This document shows, one piece after another, positions 19,601 through 51,900 of a stretch of 64,000 nucleotides of DNA. Under the pieces are notes generated by a model. The model was not told the origin of the DNA and made no database searches. It was given only the letters and a program-made list of their open reading frames with translations. Source of the stretch: Gordius albopunctatus (taxonomy: Eukaryota); contig OZ193909.1 of NCBI GenBank assembly GCA_964276515.1, forward strand, positions 14,322,001-14,386,000, written 5' to 3'. A program made the position numbers and the translations under genes. Every line of letters starts with the position of its first letter. Within the stretch, counting starts at the first letter, position 1.

Positions 19601-22600
19601 CCATGAAATCGATTACCATGAAAATAATATATTGGATAGATATTTTTTAATTAATGATAGCAAAATTAGTATTTTTGAACAATTCCATGAATTAAAAAAT
19701 ATTTATATTAAATACAATACCCCGCATCCCTCTAGTAGATTCTAATTTAGAAATTTTTTTTAATAAAAGATGGCATTAATTTTAAAATTATTGTAGTTTA
19801 TTTGCATTCTTTCAGAAAAACATGATATGGTTTTTCGGAAAAGGGGATTCGAAAGCATTTTAAAGTAAAAAGGGATTTGCCTCATAACATCCTTAAAAGT
19901 TAAAGATTTTACTTAGATGTAAATTTTAATCCGGGAGGGGAGACAGAGAGGAACTAGCCCTCTCTGTTTTGATTGAAAGCCGCTGGGTTCAAAATTTTGA
20001 ATTACTTATTAAATTAATTTCATATTTAATTTAGAGAATTTAAATGTTCTGTAATTTTACAAAGGAAAAACTAATCTAATTTTAACATTATCTTTTGTGA
20101 TTGCAGTTTAGCTCGATACCTAAACACTTTAAGGAAAATAGCATCCCAAAACTTTATAATTTGAAAAGGAAAGGGTCAGTTTATTAATATGACCCAAATT
20201 TTAATTTTGATATATGTGATTATAGATTAACTAGCATCGCAAAAAGCCTCAATTTTAGGCATCTTACTTAACATTGCAAACACCCATCGTTATTTTTCTA
20301 CTCCGTTCAAAGTTTAGATAAATAAGATATAGCTCATAAGTAAAGGACTTAAATAGATAAGCATTTTTAACACACAACGCCTAATGCGGCAAAAAAATAT
20401 ATTTATTCATATTCATGGGCATAACCAGAAATTTAACTAGAGGGGGAAATAATGATTTAGGGAGGGGCATAATGATAATTTTCTGAATTTTTTGAAGTGG
20501 CTTTAAGGGGGGCAGCCACCCCTTTTTGCTCTCCCTGGCTACGCCGATGTTCAAGGTTGTTTTATGCCATACATTAAGATTTAGGGGGTTACCTTAAACA
20601 AATAACCTGCTTCTAGAAACTTCTATACCTGAATGAATTCCAATCTTAATTTCTACAGCAATTTGCAAGTAATCGACCCTAATACCAGCTACCGATTTCA
20701 TAATATGTAAAGTCATCTTAGCTATTTCGCTTGAATGTTTATCTCCATTTCTAACGGGTAATCCCGAAGCAACCATGTATGAATCTCTAATTGTTTCTAC
20801 CTAAAAAATGTCAAAGTTCATATCTAAAAGTATATCTTGAACATGTTTAAAAAAATAAAATTTAAGTTACTCCTTAAATAATCAGGCAAACTAGAGTTGG
20901 CCTTTTAAATCGAAATATGATTTGTTTGAAGATATTGCAACTATAAAAATTACCTTTTAACTTATCCTTTTAAATTAAAACAGTTTATAAATATTAAGGA
21001 AAACTCCATTCGAAATTCGTTATCCCGCTTTTATTGTCCTCACATCTGTCCACTCAAAATTTGTTGTTCATAGGCCTATATTATACCAAACTTACTCGTT
21101 GTAGCCTATACCATATTATAAATATAAAAGTTTAAAATCTTAATTACGTCCAATAAATAAACCTAGAGAATGATCATTCAATAAAGTTTGATCACAAGAT
21201 TATAGATTGATTGAAATTTGTTTTTCCCCAAAATGATAAAATTTGCCTAATTTTATTAAGACCAAAGAAAATTAGCTCCTAAGGAATAAAAGGAAAAGCA
21301 AAAGGTTTAATGGTTGTGACTTAAAACTTTTATATTGCGGACGCGAATCTGCTCAAATAAGTAATTTAATTGTAAATATTTTTAAATATTTTGCAATTTT
21401 CAAAACTCAATTAAATTTTCATCAAATTATACCTTGTAGACATCGAACATTTCGGTTATGGCATCCATGATTGTGTAGAGTTGGTTAAGGAATTTAACGA
21501 TCTACATATGTTATGAAAATGGATGAAAAATTCTTTTACAAATTTCTGAATTTCTGGAACTTACCTTATTTGGTGAACTGCTTGTTGAGAATTCGAGAAA
21601 ATTGATCACTTCACTAAAGCAAACCGTTACACAATCAAACGATTCGGGAAACACTGTTTTACCCATTTTTAAGGCTTCCATTACAGGCCTATATGATATT
21701 ACAAATCCCAATAAATTCTAAACATACATGTGGCTTAATATTTTTATCATATTAATTTTTAGATTGTCTTAAGCTGAGCGTTGAAATCAATAATAAGATA
21801 GTTAAGTTTAAGTCTCTAGCCCGCTCTTAAAAAATTCGTAATGAGATTTTAGATTTGCTAAACGCTCTGCAAAATCAATTTTCTTCGGCCCAAACACTAC
21901 TTTTATTTTTAATTTGTCCGACTCGAGCCAATTTTTTATATAACTTTAAAGGCAAATTTTAAATTTCAAAAGTATTTCACCACCTATAATAGATTGAATA
22001 CTATGAACCTATCTTAAATCATTGCCTAACTCGTTAACTTGTTACTTCTTCACTCTAAATATATGGATAATAATAACAATCTTTATTTTTATCAGCCTCA
22101 TTCAAATTTCTAAGCTCTATTCTCAAAAAATAAATGTGAAGTGCTATGAGAATGCCTATGACCCACTTAGTTTTTCCAAGGTAATAATAGTGTCCTAAAC
22201 TATCCTTAACTTCGGTTACAAAATTAACAGCCTTAGCTTTACACAAAACTGGGTTTATGAATATGGGTTAAAATACTTTGGCAAAATTTGTAGCAAAATA
22301 GACTCTGTTTTATCCTTCTCCAAAACCAACGCATCCGATTTCTCCTTTATGACGTCTTCCAAATTTCTGTTGTAACTTTCCATACGGTTCAGTATATTAG
22401 TAACGTAATTTTCACTAACGTTTTCCCGCCGAAGTATCATTTTAAATTGTTGCTTGATGCAGTCAAAATCCGGTCGAGATTCGGGATTCTCGGACCAGCA
22501 CTTGTAAATTAATTGTCGTACATCTTTTGTACATGTCTCCTCCGGTATAATCGGTCTGTATGGTTGAATCATGGAATTGCTTGGGGCTGTAGTTATGCGG

Positions 22601-25600
22601 GCTATGATATCTTCTAGTTTAATACCATCAGCCCCGTCGTCCGTCATTTGTTGGTTAGCGGAATAAGGGGGACTCCTCAAAATAATTTCTTGGGCCACTA
22701 TGCCAAAACTGTAGATATCACCCTTTTTGGTACCTTTAAAAACATTGTTTCGAGTAAAATATGAATTTAGACTAGAATTTGTTCGTAAAAATTATGATGT
22801 ATATACAAAATATTAAAAAAGAGGGGATTTTCTATCTAAATTAATGGCATTTGACGGGATAGAGAGTTAAAAATTGATAATAGAATTCTATCTGAACGTG
22901 TGGATCAAACAGCGTTGTTGGTAGTGTATTTAATGAATATGCTTAAATTGATAGGTAATTCGAAGAAATATTTAATTAACATCACAGCCCAAACGATGAA
23001 TTCTGAGCCACATGGACTAACTTGCAATAACTTTTTCAATATTTTGTGGAAGTTTATAAAGATTTCAATAATTAATCTTTAATATTATCTGTAACATACC
23101 CAAGATTGGTGGAATTTCCATCCTCAAAAACTCCGGTGCCTCCCATAGCTTAAAGCTAAGATTTTTTAATTTCCTGTGCTTCTTTATGTAATTATGAGCC
23201 ATTAAGGAGCCTAGGCCAAAGTTGCAAATTTTGACGACGAAATTTGAATTAAGTAAACAATTGTCCGACCTTAAGTTCCCATGCAATTGTATGGGCGATT
23301 TGTGTAAATAATCCATTCCCTTATATAATAAAACAAATAAGGCCTATCTAAAATATCCACAATATGATTGAATTTTTTATGAACGCATCCCTCTGAAATT
23401 AATAAAGACCTCTTATGCTATTCAATGCTATGCCTCCATAGGTCCACCCCCCTTCTTGTGAAAATTTTAAAGCTATATAAATCGTTTAAATAGAAAATTA
23501 TGGCTTAATTTATTTTGCATAAATAAACTCACTAGACCTTGGTGTATTATTAACGGCAGTACAATGTCTAGGTAGATTCTACATCACAAGTAATAGACCT
23601 TGTAGAATGTACCTATACCTTAAATTTGCTCGTAATCAATTATTTATAGCATAATTGAATGTAGACCTTTCAAATGAATCTCCTTTTAATTTAAATAAGC
23701 AATTGGTTGATTGTAGAAAAAATATTTTAGCAATTAAAAAGCTGGTGATATTATCAATAAGAATAAACCAAATCTGTTGAAATGATTATTTATTATATTT
23801 AATATCCCGATGAATAAATAAGGTAACACAACCTAAGACGCCCAATTCCGTGTGCAAAAACTGGAGGGTTGGCGTTAGGTTAGAAACCGACTGTAAGAAC
23901 TAACTCCAAAATCATGCGAGTTTTAATTAAAACTTCACAACAGAAAGCTAGGACGTCCTCCACAAACGACGCGCACTGCATGTCCCACCCGTGCAATTTG
24001 AAAAATGCACTACAATTACCCTAACTTACAAGGAAGGAGATTAAGAAAATTAGTTGTGGAAAAAATTCTAATAGCGTGCTGGAATGTGGGATGGTTGACG
24101 GGAAGGAGCGCTGAGGTCGCACAAATGCTATGAAGAAGAAAGGTATACATCGCCTGCCTACAAGTGGTGAGGTAAGAATACATTCTATTCTATGGGTCAA
24201 AAAATTGTATAAACGAGGTCAATATCGTTGTGAGCAAATCATTCAAGGACAAGGTGGTGGAAGTCAACCGTTGTTACGACAGATTAATGTGGATGAATAT
24301 TACAGATCAAGGGGGCCTCCTAAGTGTTATGTGCGCGTGTGCTCCCCAAATTAGGTGTATGATAAGAGAAAGACATATTCTTAGATTCATTGGAAAAGGA
24401 AATACAAGGAATTGGACAGGAAGAAAGGCTAATTTTTGGGGCGGATTTTAACGCCCACGCAGGGAAAGATCACCTCGGGTATGAACGAAACTATAGAGGC
24501 TATGGGCATGGTCTGAAAAACAAAGAGGGGAAAAACTCTTGAAGTATTTTAAGCATACGACATGGAGATCGTTGACATTTATTTTCAAAAAAGCGAAGAT
24601 CATATTGTGACTTAAAAAAGTGGAAAGCATTTAGTCAAATTGACTATCTGCTCATACGGCCAAAGGACATATTAAGGACTGAAAAGTAAGACAGGGAGAA
24701 GAAATCGCCAGGCAATATAAAGGATATAAAAGAAACAGCGATTCGGTCTCTAGGATAGACCAAAAGAGGCAAAGCTGTGATATGGAGCCTTGAACACAGA
24801 TAAATCGTTTAAGGATTTCGACGAGAAAAATAAAAATCTATATAAATGGTGGAGGAAAAAGTTAGGATACAAATGGGAAAGGCTCAAAAGAGAAAAGCTA
24901 ATGGCGCAGATGAAATAACTAAAGAAGCATTGCTTGGATGCCGTGAAGAAGTCACGATCGTAAGGAGCCTCTTTAGCAAGATATTAGTAGAAGAGCGAAA
25001 TGCGGCAATTACAGAAGTATCAAGCTATGCCATTCATTGAAGCTTATGGAAAGGTTCTTAATAACAAGGCTGAAAAACGAGATGGAAATATCGGCTAACC
25101 AATTCGGATTTGTAACCGGTTTCTTGCGTTCGGACGACAGTTTGAGACTATAAACCTTTTCGGGTTGAAAATGGATTGAATCAAAGATCTGCACTGAGTC
25201 TCTTTTTATTTAATATAATAATATACAAGATAACGAGAGACATTGAAAAACCATCGCCATGGTGTATGCTATATGCCGATGATATAGTACTATACGAAGA
25301 GACAAAGGGAAAAATATTCGAAGAAACTAAAAAGTGGTCGAATGGCTTAGCTCGATATGGTGTAAAGGTCAACGATCGACAAACGTTATATATGGATATT
25401 AACGTTACCGGCACCGCAACTAGATGATCTTCCAAGGTACCCAAAAGTAGACACGACATCAAGAGGGAGGTTGCGCAATATAAGTCAATGCCCGCATTAT
25501 AAATGGCGAAGTATATCCGATGTAATGCGGGGCAAGAAAATGCCAATATGGTTAAAGAGCAAAGCTAATAAATCCATCGTAAGACCGCTGGTACCTATGG

Positions 25601-28600
25601 AAGTGAAACATGGGCTATTAAATAACACGGGAAAAAAGCTAATAGCAATGGACAATCGGAGCTTGGGGTATACTAAGCTCAACCATAAGCTTTCTCATGA
25701 CAAAAATGGGTATTCAACCTATGGCGGACATGATTAATGAAAATCGGCTTAGGTGGTATGGGCATATACTAAGAAGGGAGACAAATGATTCAAATTGCAA
25801 AGTACTGGACACGGAGGGGAAGAGAGGAAGAGAACGACTTCGTGTCACGTGAAAAGGGCAGTCGACAGATATTTGAAAAAAAGAAGATGGATTAAGACAT
25901 GGCACTTACCCAATGAGTATGGAAGAAACTCACCAAATCAAACCCCACGACTGTGTGACCAAATATTTGATAAAGAAGAAAATGTATAAATAAGGTCATG
26001 ATAAAGGATATTAAAATATTTCAAACATTATGATTGATTGTCATTATCTAGTTAAAATATTTATATCAAATTTATGCTATTTTTGCATTAAAATTTCAAA
26101 TAAAAATCTGTATTTGATTCTACTATTTATAATACAAACTTCATAATACTAAATTTTAGACACTAATTTTTGAACCACGCCAACTGCAAATAGAGTGCGT
26201 AAATATTAAAGATTTGAATATATAAGATTCTATTATCAAATCTACAAAAAGTTAATTAATTAATTCGGCGGTTTTTCAAATTTTTGGGCAACCTATAATT
26301 TTCATTGTGACAAAAAAATTGAAATTAAATTAAATATGCAACTATTTTTTTGACATTCGATTCCTAAAATTGTAAAAATAAATTATTAATATATAATCCT
26401 TACATTAATAATATCCATGATTATAGAGTATTTCATGTTAAGATCCATATCAATCTTACACCTAAAAAAGTTTTGTAAATTTCCTTTCGAACAATATTCA
26501 TTTATAATAGCGTTTTGTCCGGGTTTTAAAGAGAGACCGATAAATTGGATCAAATTGTCATGGTTGCTCGTTTTAAGGATACCATCAACTTCACTTAGTA
26601 ATTTACTGTCTAATTCAATATGGCCTTCGAAACCAATTCTTTTAATAAATATTTCATTTCCTCTATATATTCCCGTTTTCGATTTTGGATTTTTCCTTTC
26701 TGATGCTACTGTTGATATGCTTCCAATAATAGATGAGTTAGAAGGACAATAGAACATCTCCTAATATATTAAATAAAAATTTCATATTGATATACATGGT
26801 TTAGTTACGTAGGGTGTATTTGGCTTAACTTATAAAAGATTAGTTTTGTATAATGAATTGCGAATCGGTACACTTTATAGAAATCTTTGGAGACTTATCG
26901 TTGTCCCAAACGGAAGAACTGATGCAAAAAAGTAATGGAAAGAGATCTTCTATATAAAATTCACCAGCCTGCTACCTTAGATTTTAATTAGCAAATAAAA
27001 AACAAAACAGATTATTTACTAAATTGAAGAATTAGAATTCTTTGTAAAACTTTTGATTAGAATTCTTTCGCTAAAAACGTAATGGAGCTTACTTTTATAA
27101 TTATAAATTTTGCGCCGAAATAAAACATTCTGTACATAGGCGCTTAGTAGATTTAATTTATTTATTAATTATAAAGTGTTGTAGCATGGGCGTAGACACA
27201 CCCCCCCCCCCCACCCCCTAAATTACGAAAATAAAAATTTTTCAATGCAAAAACGTTAAAAATTAAAAAAATTATATTTTGCCCCCCTCTAATCGAACTT
27301 TTAAAAGTTTTGCCCCTCTCCTAATCCAAAACCTGGCTACCCCATGTGTTATAGTGCAAATTATTAATGCCGAAATTTTACTTTTATGTAGGTCTTGGAG
27401 TGACAGATGATTGACAAATCATAAATTTTATTTGTAATTTCAATATCATCAAAATTTATAAGCCATAAGCTCGGTGCTACCTTTTCAGTCTTCTTTTTCC
27501 TGATTATCGGTTATATTAAAAAAATTTATATAATTAAGAGGTACATTTTAATAAAATATATACCTTGATATGAATATTCCACCAATTATCAATGTGACAA
27601 ACAAAATCACCAAAAATGCTATTCCGAAAGAACTGTTAACATATTTGGGCTTTCCCAAGTTAGGTGTTCTTTCGCTAATAAAATTAGCTATATATTGGGT
27701 AAATTCTTGATTTTTTATAACCATCTCTTGATGGGGCATTGCATTTGTGGGATTAAATTTGTAGATTGGAATCAAATTTAAGTTTTGATCGTATATATTT
27801 GCAACGTAGTCGTACACTCTCTCTCCACGTTCATCAAATTTTATATTACCCGTTATGCCTTCGATATAAATCATATATTTTTAAATAAACTTCATAATAA
27901 TGAAACCATTTTGGTATAGTATATAATATATATTATAAATCAAACTCGTTTAAATATGCAGTGTAAAATTTTGAAAGTTAAAGAAAACGTCTCGTATAAA
28001 TACATAAAGGCCAAATATTAAAAAAAAAAATTTCAATCAAACTTTGGCCAGTGGTCATTTTTTTCAATGATCAGTAGTAAGCAGACGGCCAAATAGCCTG
28101 TATTTATAATATAGAAAAAAAGTTCGATCTACACTTTAGCCAGTGGTCATTTTTTCTAATGGTCAGCAGACAGCAGGCGGTCAAAAAGCTTATAAAAACA
28201 TAAGGGCCAAATATTAAAAAATGATAAAATTTTATAAAAACACTTTAGCCAGTGGTCATTTTTTACATTCATCGGTAGCCAGCAGACAGCCAAAAAGCCT
28301 ATATTGTTAATCTTATTAAGAAGAACAATATATTATCAATGCAAAATTTCGCTTAATAACAAAAAGAAAAAAATTCACAAGGCAGCAAATATACAATTAA
28401 AATAGCATTAACCAAATTAATAATTTTGGCGTTTGGCCGGGGTCAGATAAAGTAGAAGTAAGCAAGAGTTATGATAAATTTGCAGGGAATTATATAGCCA
28501 ATTTGGCAATCATCCGTTATAAAGCAACAACTTAGACAAATTGTCAAATAAAATTCACAAACAGCAAATATAAATAGCTATTAACCAGAATTTCGGCCTT

Positions 28601-30919
28601 TGGCCGGAGTCAGATAAAGTCTAAGTAAGCAGCGATCATCATTTCTTTGGAATTATTTAGCCAGTTTAGCAATCCGATATATAGTAACAACCTAGACAAG
28701 TTGCAAAAAGAAATTTATGTATAAAGCTAATCAGTCGGGCCCATAAACAATAATGGAATTTGGGCTCGGGCGAGGTCAAAAAAAGTAAACCCAACCAGCG
28801 GTCAGAAGCTGATTTATTTGCAAAGGCAAAATAAAAGTCTTTTACAGAAGCTTAAGTCCACGCCCATTAAAAACCCGTCTAAAGTTTCCAAGGCAATTAT
28901 TGAAAAATTACAAGTTGAACGGACAGATGGACAACCAAAAGCGAGCCCATAAATTGCATAGCAATTATAACACTGAGAAAAAGGGTATGTATATATATAT
29001 ATCAGGAGATTTATAGCTTACCATCATATTCATTTTGTAATAAAAGGGTGTGCACGTTACTGTAATTCTTCCCACTGGATTGATTTATCAATTTGGCTTG
29101 CATCATTAATGTATCATACATCGATGCCAAATCATCATAATTATTCTAGACGAATTATTATATTTTATTACATATAAAAATCATTACTTCGCATAAATTT
29201 GGCACATTTTTGGATGTATTTTGAGATAAATCCATAATAAGATCATTTTTTCTTTCGCTACTAGGTTCCAATGGTATATTTAATGTAATAACGTATCGCA
29301 ATAAATTTGTGATATCCGTGTTCCTAGTAATTACATTATGGCTTCCTACTATATTATAAACATTTTTAGCATTTAAGGAAAAACCTGTATCGCAAGAACG
29401 AAAATCTTTATTTGCTTTCATGTCCAAATGAAAAATTAAATGGTCCCCGTTCAAAATACCACTTAAATTGGCAGCTTTTACAATAGCAGCTAGATCATCG
29501 GTTCGGCATATTACAATCAAGGGTGCTAGAATAATTCATATAAATGAATCATTTTGTTTCAAAATTAGCTTTGAAAATATCCCTAAATATCCTTTAATTT
29601 CCAAGCATTTTGCTCAGTAATGAAATTTTCTTATACCCTAATCGGAACAATATGATTTAAAGTTTAAAATCTTTGTAACTTAAAATTTGATTAAATTATT
29701 AATACTTAGAAACGGAGAAGTTATAAAAGTCATTATATCCTCAATATTCATATTATAACTATTAAAAGGATATTAATCCAAATTGGGGCGACATAAATGC
29801 TATAAAGGACAATGGATCATTGCGTGATTTTTTACTGAATTTAAAAACGCCGTAATTTCTAAAAGTTTCTAAATTGAAGCTTTAAGTCTGATAAATATGT
29901 TATTATTATATATATAATGTTTGTTAACAGAAAATCCTAGGAATTATAACTTTATAATATATTTGTTAGGACATTTTTGGCCCTAGCTAGGGGAGGCAGT
30001 ATCTTTTTCAAATCCAATAATTAAATCTAATGTAACTATGGTTACAATTTCAAAAAAATCAGGTCCTCAATTAATAAAATTGATTACTAAACTTACCCCC
30101 AATTGTGGCAACGCTCGATATATATTTTATTAGATGATTAAATAAGAAATAATAAATGTTTGATTTTAAATTAACAGTTGCACAATTCTTACATTTTGGA
30201 AAATGTTTGAAGCTAGAGACTGAATTCTGTAAAATTGTGTTCTGAATTTCTGATTTAGCTAAAGGTACCCAGAAAATTTGATTAATTCTTGTTTGATTTC
30301 CTGCAGGTTCGAGAAGGGTTTTAATTAAATCATTTGCCTGTATCGTAAAGTTTTTAGTTGATAATACACCCAAAGCTTCCATTTTACGGTATGCCTTTTG
30401 ATATACATTTTCCATTATTACTGGCAAAACGATAGGTAACCATCTATAAGATGGTGTCAAAGTTATTACATGTGTCTTTTTAACTCGTAGAGGTTCAAAG
30501 AAAACCTTAACGCTATTTATACTATATATAAACAGGGGTACGTCATATTCTGTAGATATCGCTTCATAGAATTTAAGTGGAACCTTTCCATAATTTTTAC
30601 TGCCCATATATTCGTCATAAAATGCCAAAAATCCTATTAAACTATGATTTTCAAATTTTAAATAGCCTTTATCGAAGCAAATGCCCAGGCATTCCGTCGT
30701 CGAAGAGACATTTATTTGAATAGGCAAGATGTTCACCTTCCATTTGAACCTAGCATCGAGTTTGGCCTTTTCCATAACGCGAGTCCGTAAAATGCTTCTC
30801 GAAGTTTCGGGAAAATCCAGTAGAAAAACACCGAGAGTTGCTCTATAAGGTTGTGCAGAGGTCAAGGCGATTGAAAGAGGCCATAAAGTTAAGAAGATTC
30901 TACATATTATTGAAAGCAT
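16657..30919 (-). CDS. Receptor (membrane) guanylyl cyclase, natriuretic-peptide-receptor/GCY-like
   Basis: ATG at 30919 with signal peptide; extracellular exons ([14 protein letters not shown]); TM helix ~27570-27630; kinase-homology domain ([32 protein letters not shown]); dimerisation helix (ILLQILPK). Cyclase exons 21567-21690, 21433-21500, 20628-20800, ~17275-17372 ([30 protein letters not shown]), ~16807-16898 and 16657-16707 ([16 protein letters not shown]). Confidence 0.93.
17720..19349 (+). mobile_element. Internally deleted hAT DNA transposon (copy 1) in a guanylyl cyclase intron
   Basis: TIRs CAAGCGCGTAG / CTACGCCCTTG; exact 8-bp TSD ATAATAAC (17712-17719, 19350-19357). ORF 18060-19058 has LCETRW and [22 protein letters not shown] (hAT dimerisation domain). 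N-terminal catalytic part is missing. Confidence 0.95.
19395..19745 (+). pseudogene. Older hAT transposase C-terminal remnant
   Basis: [12 protein letters not shown] and [16 protein letters not shown] resemble the hAT C-terminal region. Confidence 0.55.
20414..20549. mobile_element. hAT-type MITE
   Basis: CATGGGCATAACCAG ... CTGGCTACGCCGATG termini. Confidence 0.6.
23825..25982 (+). mobile_element. Decayed RTE-clade non-LTR retrotransposon, antisense within a guanylyl cyclase intron
   Basis: AP-endonuclease start [14 protein letters not shown] motif [12 protein letters not shown] and [11 protein letters not shown] remnant, with many frameshifts and deletions. Near-perfect 14-bp TSD tg(a/t)ataaataaggt at 23811-23824 and 25983-25996. 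Confidence 0.88.
27185..27346. mobile_element. hAT-type MITE
   Basis: CATGGGCGTAG ... CTACCCCATG termini; TSD tgttgtag/tgttatag (7/8). Confidence 0.75.
28040..28720. repeat. Two adjacent degenerate tandem arrays (~110-bp unit x3, ~185-bp unit x2)
   Basis: ccagtggtcattttt..gcagac recurs at ~28048, 28140 and 28249. tttggccgg(g/a)gtcagataaagt..caac.tagacaa recurs at ~28432 and 28599. Confidence 0.75.
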
Positions 30920-31642
30920 GATATTGAGTTTCAATTAAACACGTTTATCATGTTAGTATCCCGCAATTACTGTCATTAATATATATGAATGCAAAACTTT
31001 TTACTAACGCATTCGTGTAACTCATATTAATAATTAATGCTTTTAATAGTTATGGCAGAAAATTAATCACATTTAACTTCCTCAATTGTCATAATGAGTG
31101 GATCCGGCATTTATGTGCGTTAAATTATTAATAATAATTAGACTGATTTTTAAAGTTATAATTTACTTTATTACTAATAAAAAAGGGAAACGAAAAGAGT
31201 TCGTAAATTCGTAAGAAGTGTTTTAAACTACTTTATATAATCGCGAATTAATTGAATACATTAAAACAATTAACATTTAGTGTTGAATCCGCGAGGTATA
31301 TTTGTTTGATCAATTAGCGTCGTGAAGTAGTAAGGTAATGTAAATGAGTCAATTAACATCGCGAAGCTAAGGTCACGTAAATGAGTCAATTAAGTTTCAA
31401 ATCAATTAAGGCAATGTATGCAACACTACAGATTAACACATATGTATATATTAGAGACCTGCACGGCAGGCCCGGCGGGCTTCTTCTTTAAAATTAAACA
31501 ACGGGCCGGGCCTTGACGGGCCGTAATATAACCAAGGGGACTCGGACAGGGCTTATATATACGAAACCTCTAAAAGCCCGTTAAAAAACCAATTAGATTT
31601 TATGTTTTAGAAAGTATATACAAAGATTTTTTATTTATAATT

Positions 31643-40060: not shown

Positions 40061-41436
40061 CAAGCGCGTAGGGAAGGGGGGGGTTTTCGGGTTTGAACCC
40101 CCCCTCCTCCTGGATATTATTTTTTTTTCAAAACACAACACAAAATTATTGATAATCATAATTATAATTAATTTAGCTAGTGTCAAGTGCTGCGTTTATA
40201 TTTATAAATATGTGTTAAAAAATTAAGTCGACAAGTTAATAAATTTTGAATTTCGGAATTTGTATTTTTGATTAAAATCTTCCAAACTGATCTTTTCTGT
40301 AAATTTAAGTTCCGCGCCTTATTATGAAGCGATATTCCATTTATACATACTTCCCTAAAAAGAGTAACATTTGCATTTCTGAGGAGAAAGATACAAATAT
40401 TCAATTAAGGACATCCAACTTTTGGCTGTCTTTGTACATGCTAAATCAAATTTTCTCTTACACTATTAATCTTAGCAATTATTTTCAAAAGATTAATATA
40501 GACCTTTCTCAGGCCATAAATGCAGCCGAAAATGCGTTTATACAGATTCAACATTTGCGGGAAAATTCCCAAGAAGAATTTAGAACAATCTACAATGATG
40601 TCTTGTCACTAGGAGATATATATGATTTCAAAATTACTATTCCTAGGAGAGCCTCACGACAAACTCTTCGTTCAAACATTGAAACATCTTGTCCAGAAAC
40701 TTATTACAGAGTTTCGTTGTATAACTCCTTTTTAGATGCGGTTTTGGTGGAACTTGATGAAAGGTTTCTAAAAAACAAGCAAATACTGTTGGGATTTGAT
40801 TCCCTTCTAATTAAGTCCCCTGTCATGCTCTCAACAGAAATATTAAATAACTTTCAATTGGCAAATTTTTATGAAGAAGATCTTGACGGCTCTCAAGAAC
40901 AATTCAAATCGGAAATTAAATTGTGGTATCAGTCGTTCAAGTACTGTGAATTACAGAATTTGCCTATCAATGCTGCATTTGAAACATTAACCAATCATGC
41001 GTCCAAATTAAAATTATATCCAAATATAAAAACATTATAGCCTATTTTAGCCACACTCCCCGTTACAACATGCTCTAATGAGAGATGTTTTTCAGCTTTA
41101 AAAAGACTAAAAACTTACCTCAGGAACAAAATGGGACAAGAAAGGTAAATTAAATGGTCTTACTAATTTTTAATTTAGGCTTACCGGATTAACCTTGTTA
41201 AATGTACATAGACAATATACCCTCAAAACAGAAGATATTATTAATGCATTTTTATCTAAAAAACGTCGATATTAATTGTTTATAGTTTTTAAATATTTTG
41301 TTATATTATAATTTATTTTTGTTGTATTTTTACTTTACTTTCAATAATATATGTCGAAAATAAAATTACTTCCAAAAAAAATATGGCTTCAAAAATTTTA
41401 AACCCCCCCCCCTAGCAAATCTTGGCTACGCCCTTG
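40061..41436 (+). mobile_element. Internally deleted hAT DNA transposon (copy 2 of 17720-19349)
   Basis: Same TIRs; different exact TSD TTAGATTG (40053-40060, 41437-41444); near-identical to copy 1 with an extra ~250-bp deletion and a premature stop at 41040. Confidence 0.95.
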
Positions 41437-42905: not shown

Positions 42906-45900
42906 TTATGTATCTTCACCGTCGTGTTCACGTTTTAATTCCCAAATTTTCTCTTGTCCTAAAAATGAAACTTTTTAAAAGATGTGAATAAATTTACCAG
43001 CTGAAGATATTATGTGGTCTCCGGTGCAGTTGAATTTGAATGTCTAAATTGTATAATTCATATAGGTTTAATTATAGTTTGTATATTGGATCTTATTTTA
43101 AAAATTAGAATACGATTATGTATGGTTCCATTCAACTGACTAATTTATAGTTACTAATTTGTTAATGAAATTAAACAAAAAGAGATAATAAATCAGGTAA
43201 TTGTACATATGGCTATGCTATAATATACTAGCCGTGCCCGGCCAAGCGTTGCTTTGGCTCAGTCCTTAAGTGGTTAAATAAGTATAACCTATTAGTAAGA
43301 CTTGTATAAAATGGGGTCATATATGAAATAATAATTCAAATAAATAAAAGATCCATAATATTTATTTAGAGCATGAATTTCATCACGCCATGGATTTTAT
43401 GAACCCACTATTTTTCGTATATCTATATATATAAAGTAAAGTGTATGTATGTAAGGGCTAAATTCTGAAACTACCGCCCCGATTCGCGCGAAACTTTACC
43501 CGTAGGTTCCCAGGGGTAAAATAGCTTTTTCAGAATCCTAAAATTTCCTTTAGTTTTAAAAATAGGGGCCTTTTAGTTTTAAAAAATGGCTTAATTCTAA
43601 AACTACCGGCCCGATTCGCGCGAAAATTTAGCTGTAGATGCACAGGGATGCCAGGAGTAAAATAGCTTTTTCAGATTCCTAAAATACCTTTTCGTTTTAA
43701 AAATATCGGACATTTCCCGGCCAGTATAATTTATAGCAGCATATACAATAATGACGTCATACATACAAGTCTGAAGTTTTCTCGAATTAGATATTTAAAA
43801 GTATAATAAAAATTTTACAGTATACGGTCAAAATTATTGGGGTTTAATCAGCTATTTAAATTAAATAAATAAAATTTTAATTAATAGCTTTTGCAGAATC
43901 CTAAAATTCCTTTTAGTTTTAAAAAATGGAAAAATTCTGAAACTATCGGCCCAATTGGCTCGAAACTTTACCCCTAGGTTCCCAGGGCGACCAGGGGTAA
44001 AATAGCTTTTTCAGAATCCTAAAATACCTTTTCGTTTTAAAAATATCGGACATTTCCCGGCCAGTTTCATTTATAGCATCACTAGATGAACCCGTCAAAC
44101 GTTGTTTTGCCATTTACCCGGGTTTATTAAATTATGTTGGAATTTTAGGGCATATATGATGATAAAGCGGTTATTTAAGTAAAAATAAAGTTTGATAATT
44201 TTTAAACAAATAGTTAAAGGGGGTCCAAGGCCCAGGCCCACCCAAGAGAGAAAACCTGGCCCCATGCCACCTCCCCCCAAGGGAAAAATCGTTGGCCCTC
44301 TGACCCTTCAAGCAATTTTTTTTGTTCATTTTTCCAATCCCCGGACCCCCCGGTTACGGTTCGTAAGAACTTTCGCCGGAGGCGTTTATTCACGCGTAAA
44401 TGACTATAAACTACTTCATAAAAAACGTAGAAATAATGCGCACGTGAGTTACATTTCGGGAAAAATTATATATATGTGTAAAACGAATTTTCGGGTAAAG
44501 TTTAGGGACAAACAACGGGCGATGTAAGTGCTGGAGGGTATCGCGCAGGAAATAACAAGTGATGCCCGGGGGGCAGGTGCGTGCTTTTATACACATAATG
44601 CGCATGGGTTTATGCTATGGTTCTAGGTCAACTACTTCGACCGGCAATTCGTTTTCCCAGAACGTCAAGTCAAATTCCTCTTCCGTGGGTATGTGGGCTT
44701 GAAAATCCCTCTGTTCTCGCGTATGCGTGGACCGTCTCTGCCGGACTCCCCACCTCCTACGCCGCCGCCACAAACGTCGTCGTCACCACTGCCGTCCGAA
44801 TCGGAGCAAAGGATCTCCGATTCCGAATCATCCCTCGGCCGGGACGCGGGGAAGGAAGGTAGCCGCAATGGGCTACAAAGCAGCACTCGATCTATACAGC
44901 ATCCACGCCAACGGGGGGCTATTCAAACCTCCTAAGGCTAAACGATACTCTAAGGGCTCGCCAGACTTCTTTACCGAGATGCTCGCTGCGGGAATCGTAT
45001 CAAAATCACCAAGGGTGCTAATCCGGTCAGATACTTTCTTCATCGACAAACCAAACAGAGACGCACGTGTCATTAAGATCCTTTCACACGCCTCCAAAAA
45101 CTTCGTACCCAAACCGATGAAGCTGGCGAACATCCCGCTGACCGCTAGACACCTCGCTGCCGCACGATTTGCAGCAAAAGTAGACTTTAAAGCAGCTTTC
45201 TTCTCGGTGACAATACACGAGCATACGAAGAAATACTTGGGATACGTGTGGAAAAGGAAACCGTACGAGTACAATGTGCTCCCCATGGGTGCCTCGTTTT
45301 CACCGTTCGTACTCCAAATGATAATAAGCGACCTAGCCAAAAAATCCGTCAAAAGGTCTAAATACAATGTGTATCTCGACAACCTACTCATATATAGTAC
45401 AAGCTTCCAGGCCGTACAAGAAGACTTGGAATGCCTAGTAGAACTCTCCAAAGCATGGGGGTTAACAATTAACGTATCAAAATCATCAATCCTTCCCAAA
45501 AGCCAAATCGAGTACCTAGGAATGGAGTTAAGGCTTTATGTCTCTGCAATAAAATGCAAAGCAAACACAGCCGACAGACTTAGGGTCGCAGCAGACGTAA
45601 TGTTCCTGGCATTGCGATATGACATACCAAACAACACACTGCTGGAAGCCCTGGGGGTACTCAATTATTTCTTTTACAATCTTACTGCAATGTCGAAGCT
45701 GTTTTCAAGCTTCTATAGCCTTACGAAAGAAAACCCACCCTGGTTCGATAGGTGCCTCGCAGGGGACAAGCTCATGGCGATCTTAAAAATAACGCACGAT
45801 ACAATCCCTCTATACGTCAAGCCATCAAGCAGGGTGTACGTTGATGCGTCAGGGTCCTATATCGGGCTAATGGACGAAAATGGGCCACACTCGAACACAT

Positions 45901-48900
45901 TCGCCAACGCCGCAGCCTCGTTTGGGTGGAAATGGAGAGAACCTCACCACATCACACTAGCCGAAACCGTGGCCGTCCTCTATGGGTATATCCGCTCCTA
46001 CCTATCAGGCAACAACCACCCCAAGCTAATCACGGACTCAGCAACTGACTACTACGTGCTCAAAAAGGGGGGCTCAAACTCCCCTACAATCGAGGAAGCC
46101 ATAGCCACTTTTGTCAAAACATACGGACTGAAACACCTCTTAAACATCCATTTCAATCTCTCCTGGGTACCAACAGATAGAAATCCGGCGGACGACCCGT
46201 CCCGAACCTGGGTACCCGACACACCCGAGTCCGAACAGCTCAACACTGACATAGACTACGTACTACAACACGGTCTCCCAGAAGACGAAGAAATCGACTT
46301 AAATTTTTGGGAAAACGAATTCCCAGTCGAGGTGATAGATCTAAAACCGTAGCAAACCCTTGCGCAAAATGCGTATAAATACGCACGCTTGCCCCCCGGG
46401 CATCACTTGTCTTTCTCGCTCAGTGATACCCTCCATCATACACCTCGCCCGTACGCTTATCCCTTACCTTACCTCCTAAAATTCATTTTCCACTCACATA
46501 TATCACGCGCGCACTCTTTTACGCATTATATACATACTCCGCATGTTATATTTAGATGCTTTATTGTTTTACGCGTGAATAAACGCCTCCGGCGGAAGTT
46601 CTTACGAACCAAAACCGGGGGGGGGGGTCCAAGGACAGGCATAACCCGCCCTTTTGCGAAAAATTATAGATATGTGGAAAACGAATTTTCGGGTAAGGTT
46701 TAGGGACAAACAACGGGCGATGTAAGTGCTGGAGGGTATCGCGCAGGAAATAACAAGTGATGCCGGGGGGCAGGTGCGTGCTTTTATACGCATACTGCGC
46801 ATGGGTTTATGCTATGGTTTTAGGTCAACTACTTTTACCGGCAATTCGTTTTCCCAGAACGTCAAGTCAAATTCCTCTTCCGTGGGTATGTGGGCTTGAA
46901 AGGCCCTCCGTTCTCGCGTATGCGTGGACCGTCTCTGCCTGACTCCCCACCTCCTACGCCGCCGCCACAAGCGTTGTCGCCACCACTGCCGTCCGAATCG
47001 GAGCAAAGGATCTCCGATTCCGAATCATCCCTCGGCCGGGACGCGGGGTCGGGACTTATCCGACCCCTGCTACAAGCACACAAAGTGGTATTCGGATGGA
47101 CAAAGGCATCAACTTCTTCTAACCTACAGGCAAACTAGACATCCGCACAACAAGGCTCACCCCGCACCCGCTAATGTCACCGTTTACAAGGAAGGTAGCC
47201 GCAATGGGCTACAAAGCAGCACTCGATCTATACAGCATCCACGCCATCGGGGGGCTATTCAAACCTCCTAAGGCTAAACGATACTCTATGCTTTTATACG
47301 CATACTGCGCATGGGTTTATGCTATGGTTCTAGGTCAACTACTTCGACCGGCAATTCGTTTTCCCATAACGTCAAGTCAAATTCCTCTTCTGTGGGTATT
47401 CCTTGTTGTAGAACGAAGTCGATTTCAGTTTCTGGCAGCTCGGATTCAGAGGTCTCCGGTCTCCAGAAGCGGGATGGGTCATCCGCAGGGTTTTTATCAT
47501 TGGGTATCCATGATAGGTTGAAATGGATGTTGAGTAAGTGTTTTAGACCGAAGGTTTTTACAAACGTAGCTATTGCTTCCTCTATTACCGGTGAATTGGA
47601 CCCCCCTTTTTTCAATACGTAATATGCAGTTGCTGAGTCGGTGACTAATTTAGGGTGATTGCTTCCCGCTATATAAGACCGCGACTGTTTCGGCTAACGT
47701 AATATGGTGCGGCTTTCTCCATCTCCAACCGAACGAGGCCGCTACATTGTGGAAGGAGTTGGAGTGGGGGCCGTTTTCGTCCAGCACGCCGATATGAGAC
47801 CCTGACGCGTCGACGTACACCGTTATCGAGGGTTTGACGTACAGTGGGACGGTATCATGGGTTAGCTTTAGGATTGCCATAAGCTTGTCTGCTGCTAGGC
47901 ATCTGTCGAACCATGGCGGGTCACTACGTGTTAGGCTGTAGAAGCTAGAGAACAACTTGGACATTCCAGTTAGATTATAGAAGAAATAATTTAGCACCCC
48001 CAGGGCTTCTAAGAGTGTGTTGTCAGGCACCTTATACCGGAGTGCAAGGAACAATACGTCCGCGGCGATTTTCAGCCTATCAGCCGTTGCGGGTTTGCAT
48101 TTGATGGCGGATACGTCAAGTCTCAGCTCCATACCTAGGTATTCGATGTACGTGGATGGGAGGATCGAAGATTTAGATACGTTGATCGTCATCCCCCAAG
48201 CCTTGGATAATTCCGCAAGTCGCGAGGTCCTCTTGTACGTCATCGAACTGGGGGCTATATATCAGGAGATCGTCGAGGTAAACATTATACTTTGACCGCT
48301 TTATTGCTCTTTTGGCCAGGTCGCTCACAACCATTTGTAGAACGAACGGGGAGAAGGATGCTCCCATTGGTAACACGTTGTATTCGTAGGGTTTGCGTTT
48401 CCACACGTAGCCCAGGTATTTTTTAGTTGAGTTGTGTAACGGCACGGAGAAGAACGCTGCCTTGAAGTCAACCTTTGCTGCGTATCGCGCGACCGCTGGG
48501 TGTTTTGCGGTTAGTGAGATGTTGTCCAGCTTCATCGGTTTCGGGATGAAGTTCCTTGACGCTACTGACAGGTCCGTAATGACTCGGGCGTCCCCATTGA
48601 GTTTGGCTATAAAAAAGGTGGCAGATCGAATAAGCAGTTTACTTGATCTGGAAACGATTCCGGCTGCGAGCATTTCAGTGAAGAAGGCCGGCGATTCTTT
48701 AGAGTATCGTTTGCTTTTGGCGAGCTAATGTCACCCTTCACGAGGAAGATAGCCCTCCAGGGCTACAAAGCTAGGTTGGATTCAACACGCATACGCAAGA
48801 ACGGAGGGCTTTTCAAGCCCACATACCCACGGAAGAGGAATTTGACTTGACATTCTGGGAAAACGAATTGCCGGTCGAAGTAGTTGACCTAGAACCATAG

Positions 48901-51900
48901 CATAAACCCATGCGCAGTATGCGTATAAAAGCACGCACCTGCCCCCCGGGCATCACTTGTTTGATTTCCTGCGCGATACCCTCCAGCACTTACATCGCCC
49001 GTTGTTTGTCCCTAAACCTTACCCGAAAATTCGTTTTACACATATAAATAATTTTTCGCAAAATGTGACTCACGCGCGCATTATTTCTACGTTTTTTATG
49101 AAGTAATTTATAGTCATTTACGCGTGAATAAACGCCTCCGGCGAAAGTTCTTACGAACCGTAACCGGGGGGTCCGGGGATCGGAAAAATGAACAAAAAAA
49201 AATTCTTGAAGGGCCAGAGGGCCAAAGATTTTTCCCTTGGGGGGAGGGGGCATGGGGCCAGGTTTTCTCTCTTGGGTGGGCCTGGGCCTTGGACCCTCTT
49301 TAACTATTTGTTTAAAAATTATCAAACTTTTTTTTTACTTAAATAACCGCTTTATCATCATATATGCCCTAAAATTCCAACATAATTTAATACACCCGGG
49401 TAAATGGCAAAACAACGTTTGCCGGGTTCATCTAGTGATGCTATAAATGAAACTGGCCGGGAAATGTCCGATATTTTTAAAACAAAAAGGTATTTTAGGA
49501 TTCTGAAAAAGCTATTTTACCCCTGGTCGCCCTGGGAACCTAGGGGTAAAGTTTCGAGCCAATTGGGCCGATAGTTTCAGAATTTATCCATTTTTTAAAA
49601 CTAAAAGGAATTTTAGGATTCTGCAAAAGCTATTAATTAAAATTTTATTTATTTAATTTAAATAGTTGATTAAACCCCAATAATTTTGACCGTATACTGT
49701 AAAATTTTTATTATACTTTTAAATATCTAATTCGAGAAAACTTCAACCTTGTATGTTTGACGTCATTATTGTATATGCTGCTATAAATTATACTGGCCGG
49801 GAAATGTCCGATATTTTTAAAACGAAAAGGTATTTTAGGATTCTGAAAAAGCTATTTTACCCCTGGCCGCCCTGGGCATCTACGGTTAAATTTTCGCGCG
49901 AATCGGGCCATAGTTTCAGAATTTAGCCCTTACATACATATACACATAGACTTTACTTTATATATATATATGTTACACAATAAGGGATGCGCCAGTCTAA
50001 TGATTGGAACATAATTTTTTGCCTTTAAAACTCCCAACTTCCTTTTGTCTGTTATTAATTCTAATATCTTAAAAAGCTTGTTTTAAAATTTACAAAAGAT
50101 TACAAGACTTTCCTTAGTTAGAGTTTGTACAGGGGCTACATTATTTGATATCCTTTTATGTCAAGTTATTTTCCCCCGATTTTTATAAATAACAATAAAT
50201 GAACATTTAATGCATCGGTATCAGAGGTCATATTTGTTAGGAATTTTATGTCCGAACTCGGCCCGGTTCAATTTTTTAACTTCATTGCTCGCCCGAACCT
50301 TCTAGGTACCCGCCCGGGCCCCCCCCCCAAAACATTAAAGCTGCCCGAACTGCCCGGCCCGAAATATTAAATTTACCTGTTAGGCCCGAAATTTTGCGAT
50401 CTCAAATTCTTTCAACCACAATTAAAAAATAAGCATTAAATTAATGGCATATTTAATAAAACAAGTCCATGAAAATATTTATGTAGCAATTTTTAATTAA
50501 GTTTAAAGTTTACATATTTAATAAATAATATTACAATAAACGAAATTATACTCCCCTTTTGATTTAACCCCTTTGCCCTACCCATAAATAAACTTCTTAA
50601 TGAATAAAATTAGTTCAATTAGTCAATCTGTGCTCTGTTAAAACTTACTTTTTTGATAAAAAGACAATAATTTATCAATAGAATTTAAATGCAATTTATG
50701 GATAATTCTTTTAACTTAAAGCAAAAAAGAAAGGTATAGAAATTTTTTATCATGAAAATAAGTAGTAACTTAGCGAAAGCGACGAATGATAAGGGAATAA
50801 TAAAGGTTAATTGGAGAAAATTTGTGATGGCGAAATCAAGTTTCTTAACTTTTTTAGCATTTTAATATGCAATAAAATAAAAAGTAACAAAATAATACAC
50901 TATTTAAAAAATCTTATTAAGCCCGAATCCTATCTTCGTGCCGCCCGCCCGGGCCCGCCCGAAAATAAAAATGTGGGCCGGGCCGGGAAATCTGATCTCT
51001 GATCAGTATTATTCTAAAGTTGATGAATCTTTAAACATAAACCCAAAATTATTGAGTGTTAACCTTGATTATTTTGAAAAAATTGAATTAAATAACAATT
51101 TTGAACAAAGAAATATCATAGCGATCAAAAAGTGATGTTTTATGGTTTATGGACATGGGATCAATTCGGGTTGGCCCATCCGGCCGGGCGGGCCAACCAA
51201 CCCGGGCCCAATTATCTAAACAGATTTTGTCCGAACCCGACCCTTAATCGTTTCGAGCTGAGTCCGGTCGGGCCCATGCAGAGCTCTACCAATAATATTA
51301 CTAAGGGGCTTTTAATAAGAAAGTGCAAATCTTCTAGATATTTAAGCAGCCAAAAAGAACTAAGACTAGGGTACAGCCTCTTACGTGAATAGATTGTTTA
51401 GAGTTGGTGGGCAAGGTATTAAGGAGGTAACCGTTGTGAGCATCGAAAATAGCACCGCTAATCCCACTCAATAAAAAACGATTTTGGTCAGGCAGTAAAT
51501 CCGGCACATAGGCGGGTACGTTATTTGTGGCTACAATAAACGCGTCGTAATGGGGATGCCATGAAGCCTAATATTTTATAAAATTAAATTTAAAGTAGAT
51601 TAACAATCAATGAAAAATATATTTTAGTGGAAAAAATAGGATGACCTCATCCAAATGGCGGTCTAAGTTACTTAATAAAATTTAAGGCAAGCCTTCTGTT
51701 TGCCAATCTAATGTATATTAGTCTACGGTTGCGACATAGATACAATAACTAGGTAATTTTTGCGCAAGATATATATTAGGATAACTACTGCACATCTAGA
51801 CTAAAACCGATTAGTAGATTGATAGATTTTATATAATGGTAACCTTAATAGGCAGTTTGTTGGTGTTTTGGTGTGGATGTTTAATTCTTGTCTTCAGGTC

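Follow-up and report, generated by a model that had tools for sequence, protein, structure and literature searches.

Two long-diverged reverse transcriptase lineages in one mosaic locus of a horsehair worm: a possible co-capture of non-integrating element DNA

A locus in Gordius albopunctatus combines pieces of two long-diverged lineages, A and B, of one reverse transcriptase–RNase H (RT–RNase H) element. The window, which is the whole stretch of DNA analysed, comprises 64,000 nucleotides, and the locus described here extends from 43421 to 49971. The best explanation, to which about an even chance is assigned, is that both lineages were captured together from free, non-integrating and probably pararetrovirus-like DNA during the repair of a single chromosome break. 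Co-capture was one of two options offered by the first-pass annotation of this sequence, and it fits best with the approximately single-copy depth of both lineages, the four alternating A/B junctions and their similar decay.

In this mosaic, lineage A is represented by a long and a short piece, and lineage B by one long piece and three with internal deletions. The whole is framed by inverted arms of ~1.15 kb each, about two-thirds of which is high-copy host repeat. The outer part of the left arm is host repeat Y (43421..44081, plus strand), whose 5′ end faces outward and which has an inverted match to 49436-49971. From its termini, this repeat is presumably Helitron-like. Host repeat X follows (44082..44335, minus strand), with a CTAG 3′ end at ~44082, and is joined to the end of a B 3′ module; the boundary was placed between 44292 and 44335 (read depth 176,809 at 44291 vs 633 at 44336). 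The first deleted B piece (44336..44729, minus) runs from part of the RT start directly to the last ~24 codons and on through the whole 3′ module. Next come the first copy of an A-lineage upstream piece (44730..44851, plus), open in all three plus-strand frames, and RT-A (44852..46352, plus), which comprises reverse transcriptase, RNase H and an acidic tail of ~50 residues. The A 3′ module (46353..46651, plus) includes a TATA at 46374, an initiator-like A at 46405, an AATAAA, a 55-base block and a G run. Beyond it lie the second deleted B piece (46652..46926, minus), with a shortened 3′ module, the second copy of the A upstream piece (46927..47288, plus), which also carries the first RT codons and is cut at A codon 33, and RT-B (47289..48723, minus), with its stop at 47322. 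In the third deleted B piece (48724..49181, plus), the RT start is joined at 48822/48823 to the last codons, which are followed by the whole 3′ module (TATA 48924, predicted transcription start near 48955). Mirror copies of X (49182..49436, plus) and Y (49436..49971, minus), the latter again with its 5′ end outward, complete the right arm. The orientation order is therefore B(-) A(+) B(-) A(+) B(-), with A and B pieces alternating at four junctions. The two RT genes are convergent, as the first-pass annotation describes them; that description leaves out ~970 bp of extra A and B fragments between the two stop codons and further B fragments on both sides.

RT-A and RT-B share 79% amino-acid identity over 461 codon pairs, with nucleotide identities of 84/90/46% at the three codon positions, which bears out the earlier observation that the two are similar as proteins and much changed at third positions. 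The four strings quoted for it were recovered at the expected places, at 45045 (plus), 48587 (minus), 45186 (plus) and 48455 (minus). At fourfold sites, 68% of 173 differ. The uncorrected values are pS 0.71 and pN 0.13, with a pN/pS of 0.18 (bootstrap 95% range 0.14-0.22), and the corrected dN/dS of 0.065 (upper 97.5% bound 0.10), which is rough as dS is near saturation, agrees with the purifying selection that had been proposed. A tblastn search of the window with RT-A recovers RT-B from the minus strand; the match is spread over three frames, which correspond to A codons 28-192, 195-377 and 381-499 (76-83% identity). Both genes are damaged: a 139-bp deletion truncates the start of RT-A, whose catalytic motif is changed at codon 177, while RT-B is without its first ~30 codons and has frame breaks near 48222 and 47675. 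Decay is similar in the two, with 10 (A) vs 9 (B) departures at 109 conserved sites. RT-A matches RVT_1 (E 7e-22), its alignment-based structure model has a pLDDT of 87, and both proteins end ~50 residues past RNase H. A 220-codon antisense frame over RT-A was rejected as a gene because B has stops at codons 130, 137 and 173 in the same register. An overlapping plus-strand frame over the RT start has a stop at codon 27 in A and at codon 10 in B and is therefore not conserved.

Nine pairs of duplicated pieces within the locus differ by 1.0-4.7%, the host repeat pair among them (3.5%); B piece 1 differs from its right-arm copy by 3.6%, and B piece 2 from pieces 1 and 3 by 3.3-4.7%. Since A and B are near saturation at synonymous sites and the duplicated pieces are only 1-5% apart, the divergence of the lineages predates the local rearrangement, as the first-pass annotation had supposed. 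The same narrow range makes the pieces compatible with one complex insertion event. Duplicates of A and of B origin show no difference in age (5/223 vs 14/394, Fisher p 0.47), and the element–host junction is duplicated in inverted form. It is most improbable that the mosaic is a chimera of assembly or of whole-genome amplification. Fold-back palindromes are a typical amplification artefact, the read evidence consists of assembled contigs of two runs (X1 and X2) that possibly both come from the assembly's own sample, and the 16 pieces listed span just one of the five internal junctions. However, duplicated pieces that are 1-5% apart and carry indels are unlike fresh chimeras, and the two runs yield matching contigs with 0-3 differences, one of which, 830 bases long, crosses 48723/48724 with 0 differences.

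The other option of the first-pass annotation was a native element in the form of a twin-RT, tail-to-tail, hairpin-shaped unit. As considered here, this would be a replicon (hairpin or heterodimer) with A and B as obligate partners, and the locus a damaged copy of it. The alternating orientation would suit such a replicon, as would a B|A head junction that is present twice with a 2198-base period and a single A-tail/B-tail junction at 46651/46652. Nevertheless, the junctions fall within coding sequence and within the B module, the centre of the locus is occupied by one of the deleted B pieces and by another A start, RT-B keeps only 33 bases past its stop, and the arms are mainly host repeat. 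A third lineage is also present, and the long antisense frame of A is not kept in B. Each lineage has its own promoter- and poly(A)-like module; as A and B are identical in domain content and have their own modules, no division of labour is visible. This option is consequently poorly supported and is considered very unlikely.

In run X2, A forms a single unbranched 1692-base contig at depth 85, B contigs have depths of 88-91 and unique flanks 108-144, and a third lineage, ~86% identical to B, has a depth of 61. RT-B is matched by read contigs with 0-1 differences. Both A and B are thus at about single-copy depth, and the reads hold no near-identical second copy of A. This depth, together with the existence of a third lineage, makes a chance nesting of abundant families unlikely. 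In places, the summed depth over the RT region is 2- to 17-fold above that of the main contigs, which leaves room for further, more diverged copies. Host repeat Y, for its part, reaches a depth of 0.6-1.5 million vs ~600 for unique DNA (run X1), and the reads show many different loose flanks at the mirror end of repeat X at 49436.

Instead of being captured together, A and B may have inserted at separate times or places and been joined later, either by rolling-circle read-through of the Helitron-like repeat or by a second relative guided by homology to a resident copy. Such a history is regarded as improbable. It would account for the homology of both arms ending, on either side, precisely where repeat Y has its 5′ terminus, and for a 13-base stretch, common to A and B, found where the short A piece is cut off and again close to the truncated start of B. 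In contrast, the outermost ~250 bases of the arms show greater divergence and two indels, a pattern that a repair switch between two resident Y copies would be expected to leave. In addition, the read matches listed include no A or B copy close enough in identity to have been the donor, and the two lineages have decayed alike.

In each lineage, the RT stop is followed by that lineage's own module of TATA, initiator and AATAAA. The distance from TATA to initiator is 31 in A and in B, and that from initiator to AATAAA is 173/172 in the two lineages despite many indels. Four of the five window matches to the TATA–initiator pattern fall inside modules, where 0.35 are expected, and the 55-base block of the A module is near-invariant. 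Judged by its sequence, the module resembles the terminal redundancy of a pregenomic RNA; a TATA-to-AATAAA arrangement could also belong to an LTR or to a split repeat. Between module and coding region, there is no direct repeat of more than 9 bases, none at matching places in A and B, and no complementary match of more than 10 bases, and no internal complementary region was found. No B1/B2 pair of split direct repeats surrounds the 3′ module in the 3′ region of either lineage. In a search for a counterpart of the epsilon stem-bulge-stem-loop of Blubervirales, the only invariant secondary structures are small hairpins (folding z -2.4 in A and -0.65 in B; covariation term -0.1). A search of Rfam gave one chance match (E 2.9), and viral contigs contain no exact copy of the invariant block. 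No protease, integrase or tRNA primer site was seen at the locus.

The three frames of the A upstream piece are one Pro/Ser-rich, one Arg-rich and one polymerase frame, the last continuing upstream alongside overlapping open frames. Neither the ~82 upstream codons present nor the short Arg-rich overlapping frame has a Pfam match; copy 2 of the piece is homologous to the N-terminus of the Gordionus protein P0151 (42% over 45 residues, E 2e-11). Among the open reading frames scanned at the locus, none encodes a methyltransferase, recombinase or integrase. The native 5′ part is missing, and a recombinase gene could have lain there. Because the native 5′ genes are absent, the element family cannot be fixed.

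Only three of the best 150 database matches fall under E 1e-29, and all are from Gordionus (Nematomorpha). These relatives are 35% identical to RT-A, lie on three contigs, belong to clusters of 1-2 members each and have acidic, not methyltransferase, tails. LOC135924019 and CAK9296137-9 both lie on a Gordionus contig of 64.4 Mb. No close relative was found in viral and metagenome collections. The loci that the scans did yield (L001-L014) are distant and mostly Gypsy-like, with one DIRS-like and one spurious. In the RT+RNase H tree, the window and Gordionus sequences group with 100/100 support as a separate long branch, and three Gypsy rows form a separate 100/100 branch. The window's clade lies within a set of 20 rows, otherwise unnamed metagenomic RTs lacking a methyltransferase, at a support of 92/92, which is below the threshold of 95, in a tree with unsettled bootstrap and meeting long branches. 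This set contains none of the 27 rows labelled methyltransferase-tailed DIRS. Against a profile built from 13 methyltransferase-less proteins, a group chosen from a tree with A in it, A scores 242 bits; five size-matched DIRS profiles give it 189-210. Of 19 members of that group, 7 match the hepadnaviral Pol C-terminal family at E up to 1, and the match of A itself reaches only E 0.07. The best TM-score among 50 listed viral folds is that of HBV protein P (0.59, rmsd 4.2), and the top viral fold matches by E-value are caulimoviral; since no DIRS-type proteins are among the listed fold matches, the fold cannot separate DIRS from HEART. The trees contain no named HEART or hepadnaviral sequences, and the link to HEART is drawn by eye to supplement rows and by fold.

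The main rival explanation, judged unlikely, derives A and B from the 3′ ends of two low-copy tyrosine-recombinase (YR) retrotransposon families of the VIPER/PAT/Ngaro type, with RT–RNase H as the last gene. Circular or linear cDNAs of these families would have been inserted together or one within the other, with rearrangement afterwards. Most of the best 150 matches are DIRS-class RTs, the upstream polymerase frame with overlapping open frames is as in YR elements, and the best-scoring Atlas look-alikes (0.97) come from Euglenozoa, are ~548 residues long and may be VIPER-like. In VIPER, the genes are arranged as gag, YR and RT/RH, and the RNase H is hepadna-like (PMC6681497). However, the 3′ module is without a B1/B2 pair or internal complementary region, no recombinase frame occurs downstream of the RTs or among the locus frames scanned, the reads show no near-identical second A copy, and the Gordionus relatives are single or paired. 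Were the locus a remnant of this type, the RT lineage would still be new and the interest modest.

Under the preferred reading, co-capture, each lineage would have been a monomer with the polymerase as its last gene. Transcription would start just past the RT stop, read through the poly(A) signal the first time and terminate at it the second time, as on a circular template, which would create a redundancy of ~190 bases. A single germ-line cell would have contained both lineages, and template-switching repair would have stitched A and B pieces into the host repeat and copied the element–host junction in inverted form; the pieces would then have decayed neutrally by a few percent. Integrated HBV is likewise described as subgenomic, fragmented and rearranged, and a title cited in the same source names inverted duplication (PMC3185520). 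More tentatively, the locus may be the genomic fossil of a co-infection by two strains from a horsehair-worm family of reverse-transcribing DNA viruses that lack an integrase and have yet to be described. Such a family would be a deep relative of HEART and Blubervirales, with the polymerase as last gene and a pregenomic redundancy of ~190 bases, repeatedly endogenised in Nematomorpha and with sister groups among short unnamed metagenome contigs. Sampling of the transition from retroelement to hepatitis-B-type virus is thin, with HEART and the rotifer-associated proto-nackednaviruses as its known intermediates (PMC12691608). If the viral reading is true, a separate lineage in another invertebrate phylum would be a testable intermediate, to whose value a promoter and poly(A) module kept in two saturated lineages adds, and the presence of both lineages in a single insertion would directly attest to mixed infection of the germ line. 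The finding also highlights unnamed RT–RNase H proteins on contigs of 1.4-3.3 kb.

Among known systems, DIRS1-like elements belong to the same broad RT/RNase H class and supply most database matches. They differ in their methyltransferase tail, downstream recombinase and ITR/ICR system, and the window element lies outside the DIRS-MT rows of the tree; its inverted arms contain host repeat and RT coding pieces, unlike the ITR/ICR arrangement. The endogenous plant pararetroviruses of Caulimoviridae share rearranged, multi-fragment insertions and a promoter directly after the last gene. In CaMV, the poly(A) signal lies ~180 bases past the start site, similar to the window module. They differ in having a protease and a tRNA primer site after the module, in RT class and in host, which here is an animal. 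VIPER/TATE, PAT and Ngaro (PMC6681497) resemble the window element in an RT–RNase H without methyltransferase, in its position as last gene (VIPER) and in overlapping upstream frames, whereas the window shows no recombinase or split direct repeats and a very low copy number. The Blubervirales (proto-nackednaviruses, nackednaviruses and hepadnaviruses) differ in redundancy, predicted at ~190 bases here vs ~33 in RTPV (PMC12691608). No terminal-protein domain, core gene or conserved DR1/DR2-like repeat is seen at the locus, the 5′ part of which is missing. They share the compact RT–RNase H fold (the TM-score to HBV P given above), the lack of an integrase, a TATA-to-poly(A) module and fragmented, rearranged integration. 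HEART elements, reportedly described by Gong and Han in 2018, are invertebrate retroelements, sister to Blubervirales (PMC12691608, PMC11551314). The window's clade differs as a separate long branch, and none of the 10 supplements contains nematomorph names. It resembles HEART in that the element is endogenous, has an invertebrate host and carries a hepadna-adjacent RT, and some of its sister-set proteins (e.g., P0135) resemble, by eye, the tick HEART rows of supplement 6.

The window, animal DNA rich in AT (about 30% GC), contains an island of 47-50% GC at 44-49 kb. RT-A is a single open frame at 44853-46352 (+), and RT-B, on the minus strand, is spread over three frames. The first-pass annotation held that these two reverse-transcriptase paralogues had diverged for a long time under purifying selection, and the four strings it quoted were all found where it placed them. 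Aligned over 461 codon pairs, the two proteins share 79% identity, and nucleotide identity by codon position is 84/90/46%. The pN/pS ratio is 0.18 (bootstrap 95% range 0.14-0.22); dS is close to saturation, and the corrected dN/dS comes to about 0.065. These ratios, together with the near-saturated dS, bear out the long divergence under selection. Both genes are now broken: a 139-bp deletion removed the start of RT-A, whose catalytic motif is altered, and RT-B lacks its start, carries two frame breaks and has its tail cut. At 109 sites conserved in two proteins of Gordionus (Nematomorpha), RT-A departs at 10 and RT-B at 9. The altered motif at RT-A codon 177 has the form seen in 7/7 tick HEART rows (PMC12691608, supplement 6); this likeness is probably a coincidence, since it is absent from RT-B and the Gordionus proteins. 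An antisense frame of 220 codons lies over RT-A (44873-45535, -) and is not preserved in RT-B.

Pfam recognizes only RVT_1 in the RT protein, and the predicted model (104-row alignment, pLDDT 87) places RNase H directly after the RT. With a cutoff of E 0.001, the protein search returned 7117 representatives; among the best 150 of these, three matches are far ahead (E 8e-72 to 2e-29, 35% identity), all of them Gordionus sp. proteins. Additional Gordionus halves are found on two contigs, one of 64.4 Mb and a third one. These matches make a horsehair worm the likely host. The Gordionus proteins P0002 and P0003/P0151/P0155 represent two paralogues that share 82% identity where they overlap, and both are located on this 64.4-Mb contig. 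Two trees were built, one of the RT (102 rows, quick search) and one of RT plus RNase H (54 rows chosen from the 150 matches, the others being omitted). Both join the window RT to Gordionus, with support of 100/100 in the second, where this clade is nested in a 20-row set (92/92) containing 0/27 of the rows labelled, by motif or Pfam, as methyltransferase-tailed; the equivalent 18-row set in the RT tree included one methyltransferase-tailed long-branch row. The unnamed sister proteins come from contigs of about 1.4-3.3 kb and end shortly after RNase H; their N-termini are often acidic or Pro-rich, and some of the proteins, compared by eye, look like tick HEART rows. The methyltransferase-less RT-RNase H proteins are P0135, P0092, P0145, P0036, P0124, P0010, P0105, P0005, P0040, P0081, P0083, P0122 and P0138, and these sisters may form a group of small replicons not yet described.

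RT-A scores 242 bits on the sister-protein profile versus 189-215 on DIRS profiles. In the fold search, the highest TM-score belongs to HBV protein P (0.59) and the best E-values to caulimoviral polymerases; PDB matches are generic RTs (TM about 0.5). Among the look-alikes in the Atlas, Euglenozoa clusters score 0.97, a mollusc-rich cluster 0.95 and protein P 0.93. The placement is tentative: relative to the DIRS/HEART divide, the lineage may belong with the hepadna-like RTs, with HEART's defining features taken second-hand from the accessible parts of PMC12691608 and PMC11551314 rather than from Gong and Han 2018. No nematomorph names occur in the 10 supplements of PMC12691608; those of Gong and Han 2018 may list more hosts. 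The accessible text of 10.1101/2024.06.11.598342, on nematomorph transposable elements, reports DIRS only in Mermis. The lineage appears undescribed, no description being found in a literature coverage largely outside subscription journals.

A 3' module, about 275 bases long, follows each RT stop; its A and B versions share 76% identity and differ by many indels. A TATA motif precedes an initiator-like motif by 31 bases, AATAAA follows 173/172 bases later, and the module closes with a 55-base block that is near-invariant and then a G run, predicted to be able to pair with a C run close to the start site. Four of the five TATA-initiator matches in the window lie inside these modules (0.35 expected). 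By consensus motifs, we take the module to be a putative core promoter plus poly(A) signal; its order would suit either an LTR-like repeat or a transcript that is read from a circle and has terminal redundancy. Homology between A and B ceases some 10 bases or less from the G run, a hint of a natural end. A search of the module and coding region of A and B for DR1/DR2, split direct repeats or an internal complementary region turned up none. Within the 55-base block (46568-46622 and 49117-49171) are AATAAA, a palindrome and a pair of small hairpins; the TTAC loop of one hairpin may resemble the priming bulge of avian hepadnaviruses. The polymerase frame extends about 82 codons upstream of the RT, homologous to a Gordionus N-terminus, and sequence further 5' is absent from the locus. 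At 46927-47271 (+), three overlapping frames (Pro/Ser-rich, Arg-rich and polymerase) are largely open upstream of the RT, and these have no Pfam matches.

Other features of the window include two near-identical hAT transposase pieces at 17985-19058 (Dimer_Tnp_hAT, E 1.7e-5) and 40309-41040 (+), host-gene exons with kinase-like domains at 22255-30934 (-), by their motifs probably a receptor guanylyl cyclase, an M13 peptidase exon at 59593-60006 (-) and a weak WD40-like exon at 52008-52415 (-). Broken non-LTR retrotransposon pieces at 52734-54291 (+) and 25366-25737 (+) are presumably RTE-like, again by their motifs.

Read support comes from two runs of one study, possibly the assembly's own sample, with 16 of about 48,000 assembled read pieces considered. 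In run X2, A assembles into a single contig of 1692 bases with zero differences at depth 85, compared with 88-91 for B contigs and 108-144 for unique flanks; in run X1, A and B contigs stand at 494-847 and flanks at 367-617. The RT family is rare rather than abundant, as first proposed, the depths of A and B being close to those of unique flanks. Among the pieces listed, one contig spans the junction 48723/48724. A third lineage is represented by an 899-base contig with 98 differences and 6 gaps relative to B (about 86% identical), at depths of 271 and 61 in the two runs, lower than RT-B's. It aligns at 47998-48720, and 178 bases extend beyond B's cut point. Further diverged copies are possible, because summed RT-region depth exceeds that of the main contigs and only a small share of the pieces was listed.

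Self-comparison of the window gave the order of the pieces. The left outer part runs from host repeat Y (Helitron-like) to host repeat X and a deleted B piece (-), the left centre from an A upstream piece to RT-A with its 3' module (+) and a deleted B piece (-), the right centre from an A upstream piece with RT start (+) to RT-B (-), and the right outer part from a deleted B piece (+) to X and Y. The inverted arms (43585-44729 and 48786-49931) are 96% identical, and about 750 bases of them are host repeat with depths in the hundreds of thousands. Duplicated pieces differ by 1.0-4.7% in nine pairwise comparisons, with no difference in divergence between A-derived and B-derived duplicates (p 0.47).

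The first-pass annotation offered either a native twin-RT, tail-to-tail unit or the co-capture of two relatives. The local anatomy makes the former unlikely. Co-capture is the best reading, based on two lineages under selection, alternating fragments, duplications of one age class, an element-host junction duplicated in inverted form, and low copy number. Independent insertion within 5 kb has a chance of about 1 in 25,000 per pair, a rough figure that assumes the nematomorph genome size of 200-300 Mb given in the accessible text of 10.1101/2024.06.11.598342. Free DNA of both lineages would have been present together in one germ-line cell, a chromosome break in host repeat would have captured it through template-switching repair, and the captured pieces would have decayed afterwards. 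The surviving parts of the element contain no integration enzyme; the main rival is a VIPER/PAT-type origin, as outlined in the accessible part of PMC6681497, in which the 5' sequence now missing would have encoded the recombinase. For co-capture, HBV integrants offer a comparison: according to the accessible part of PMC3185520, they are subgenomic and both fragmented and rearranged, and inverted duplication is reported in a title cited there. The A and B pieces of the window are likewise fragmented and rearranged.
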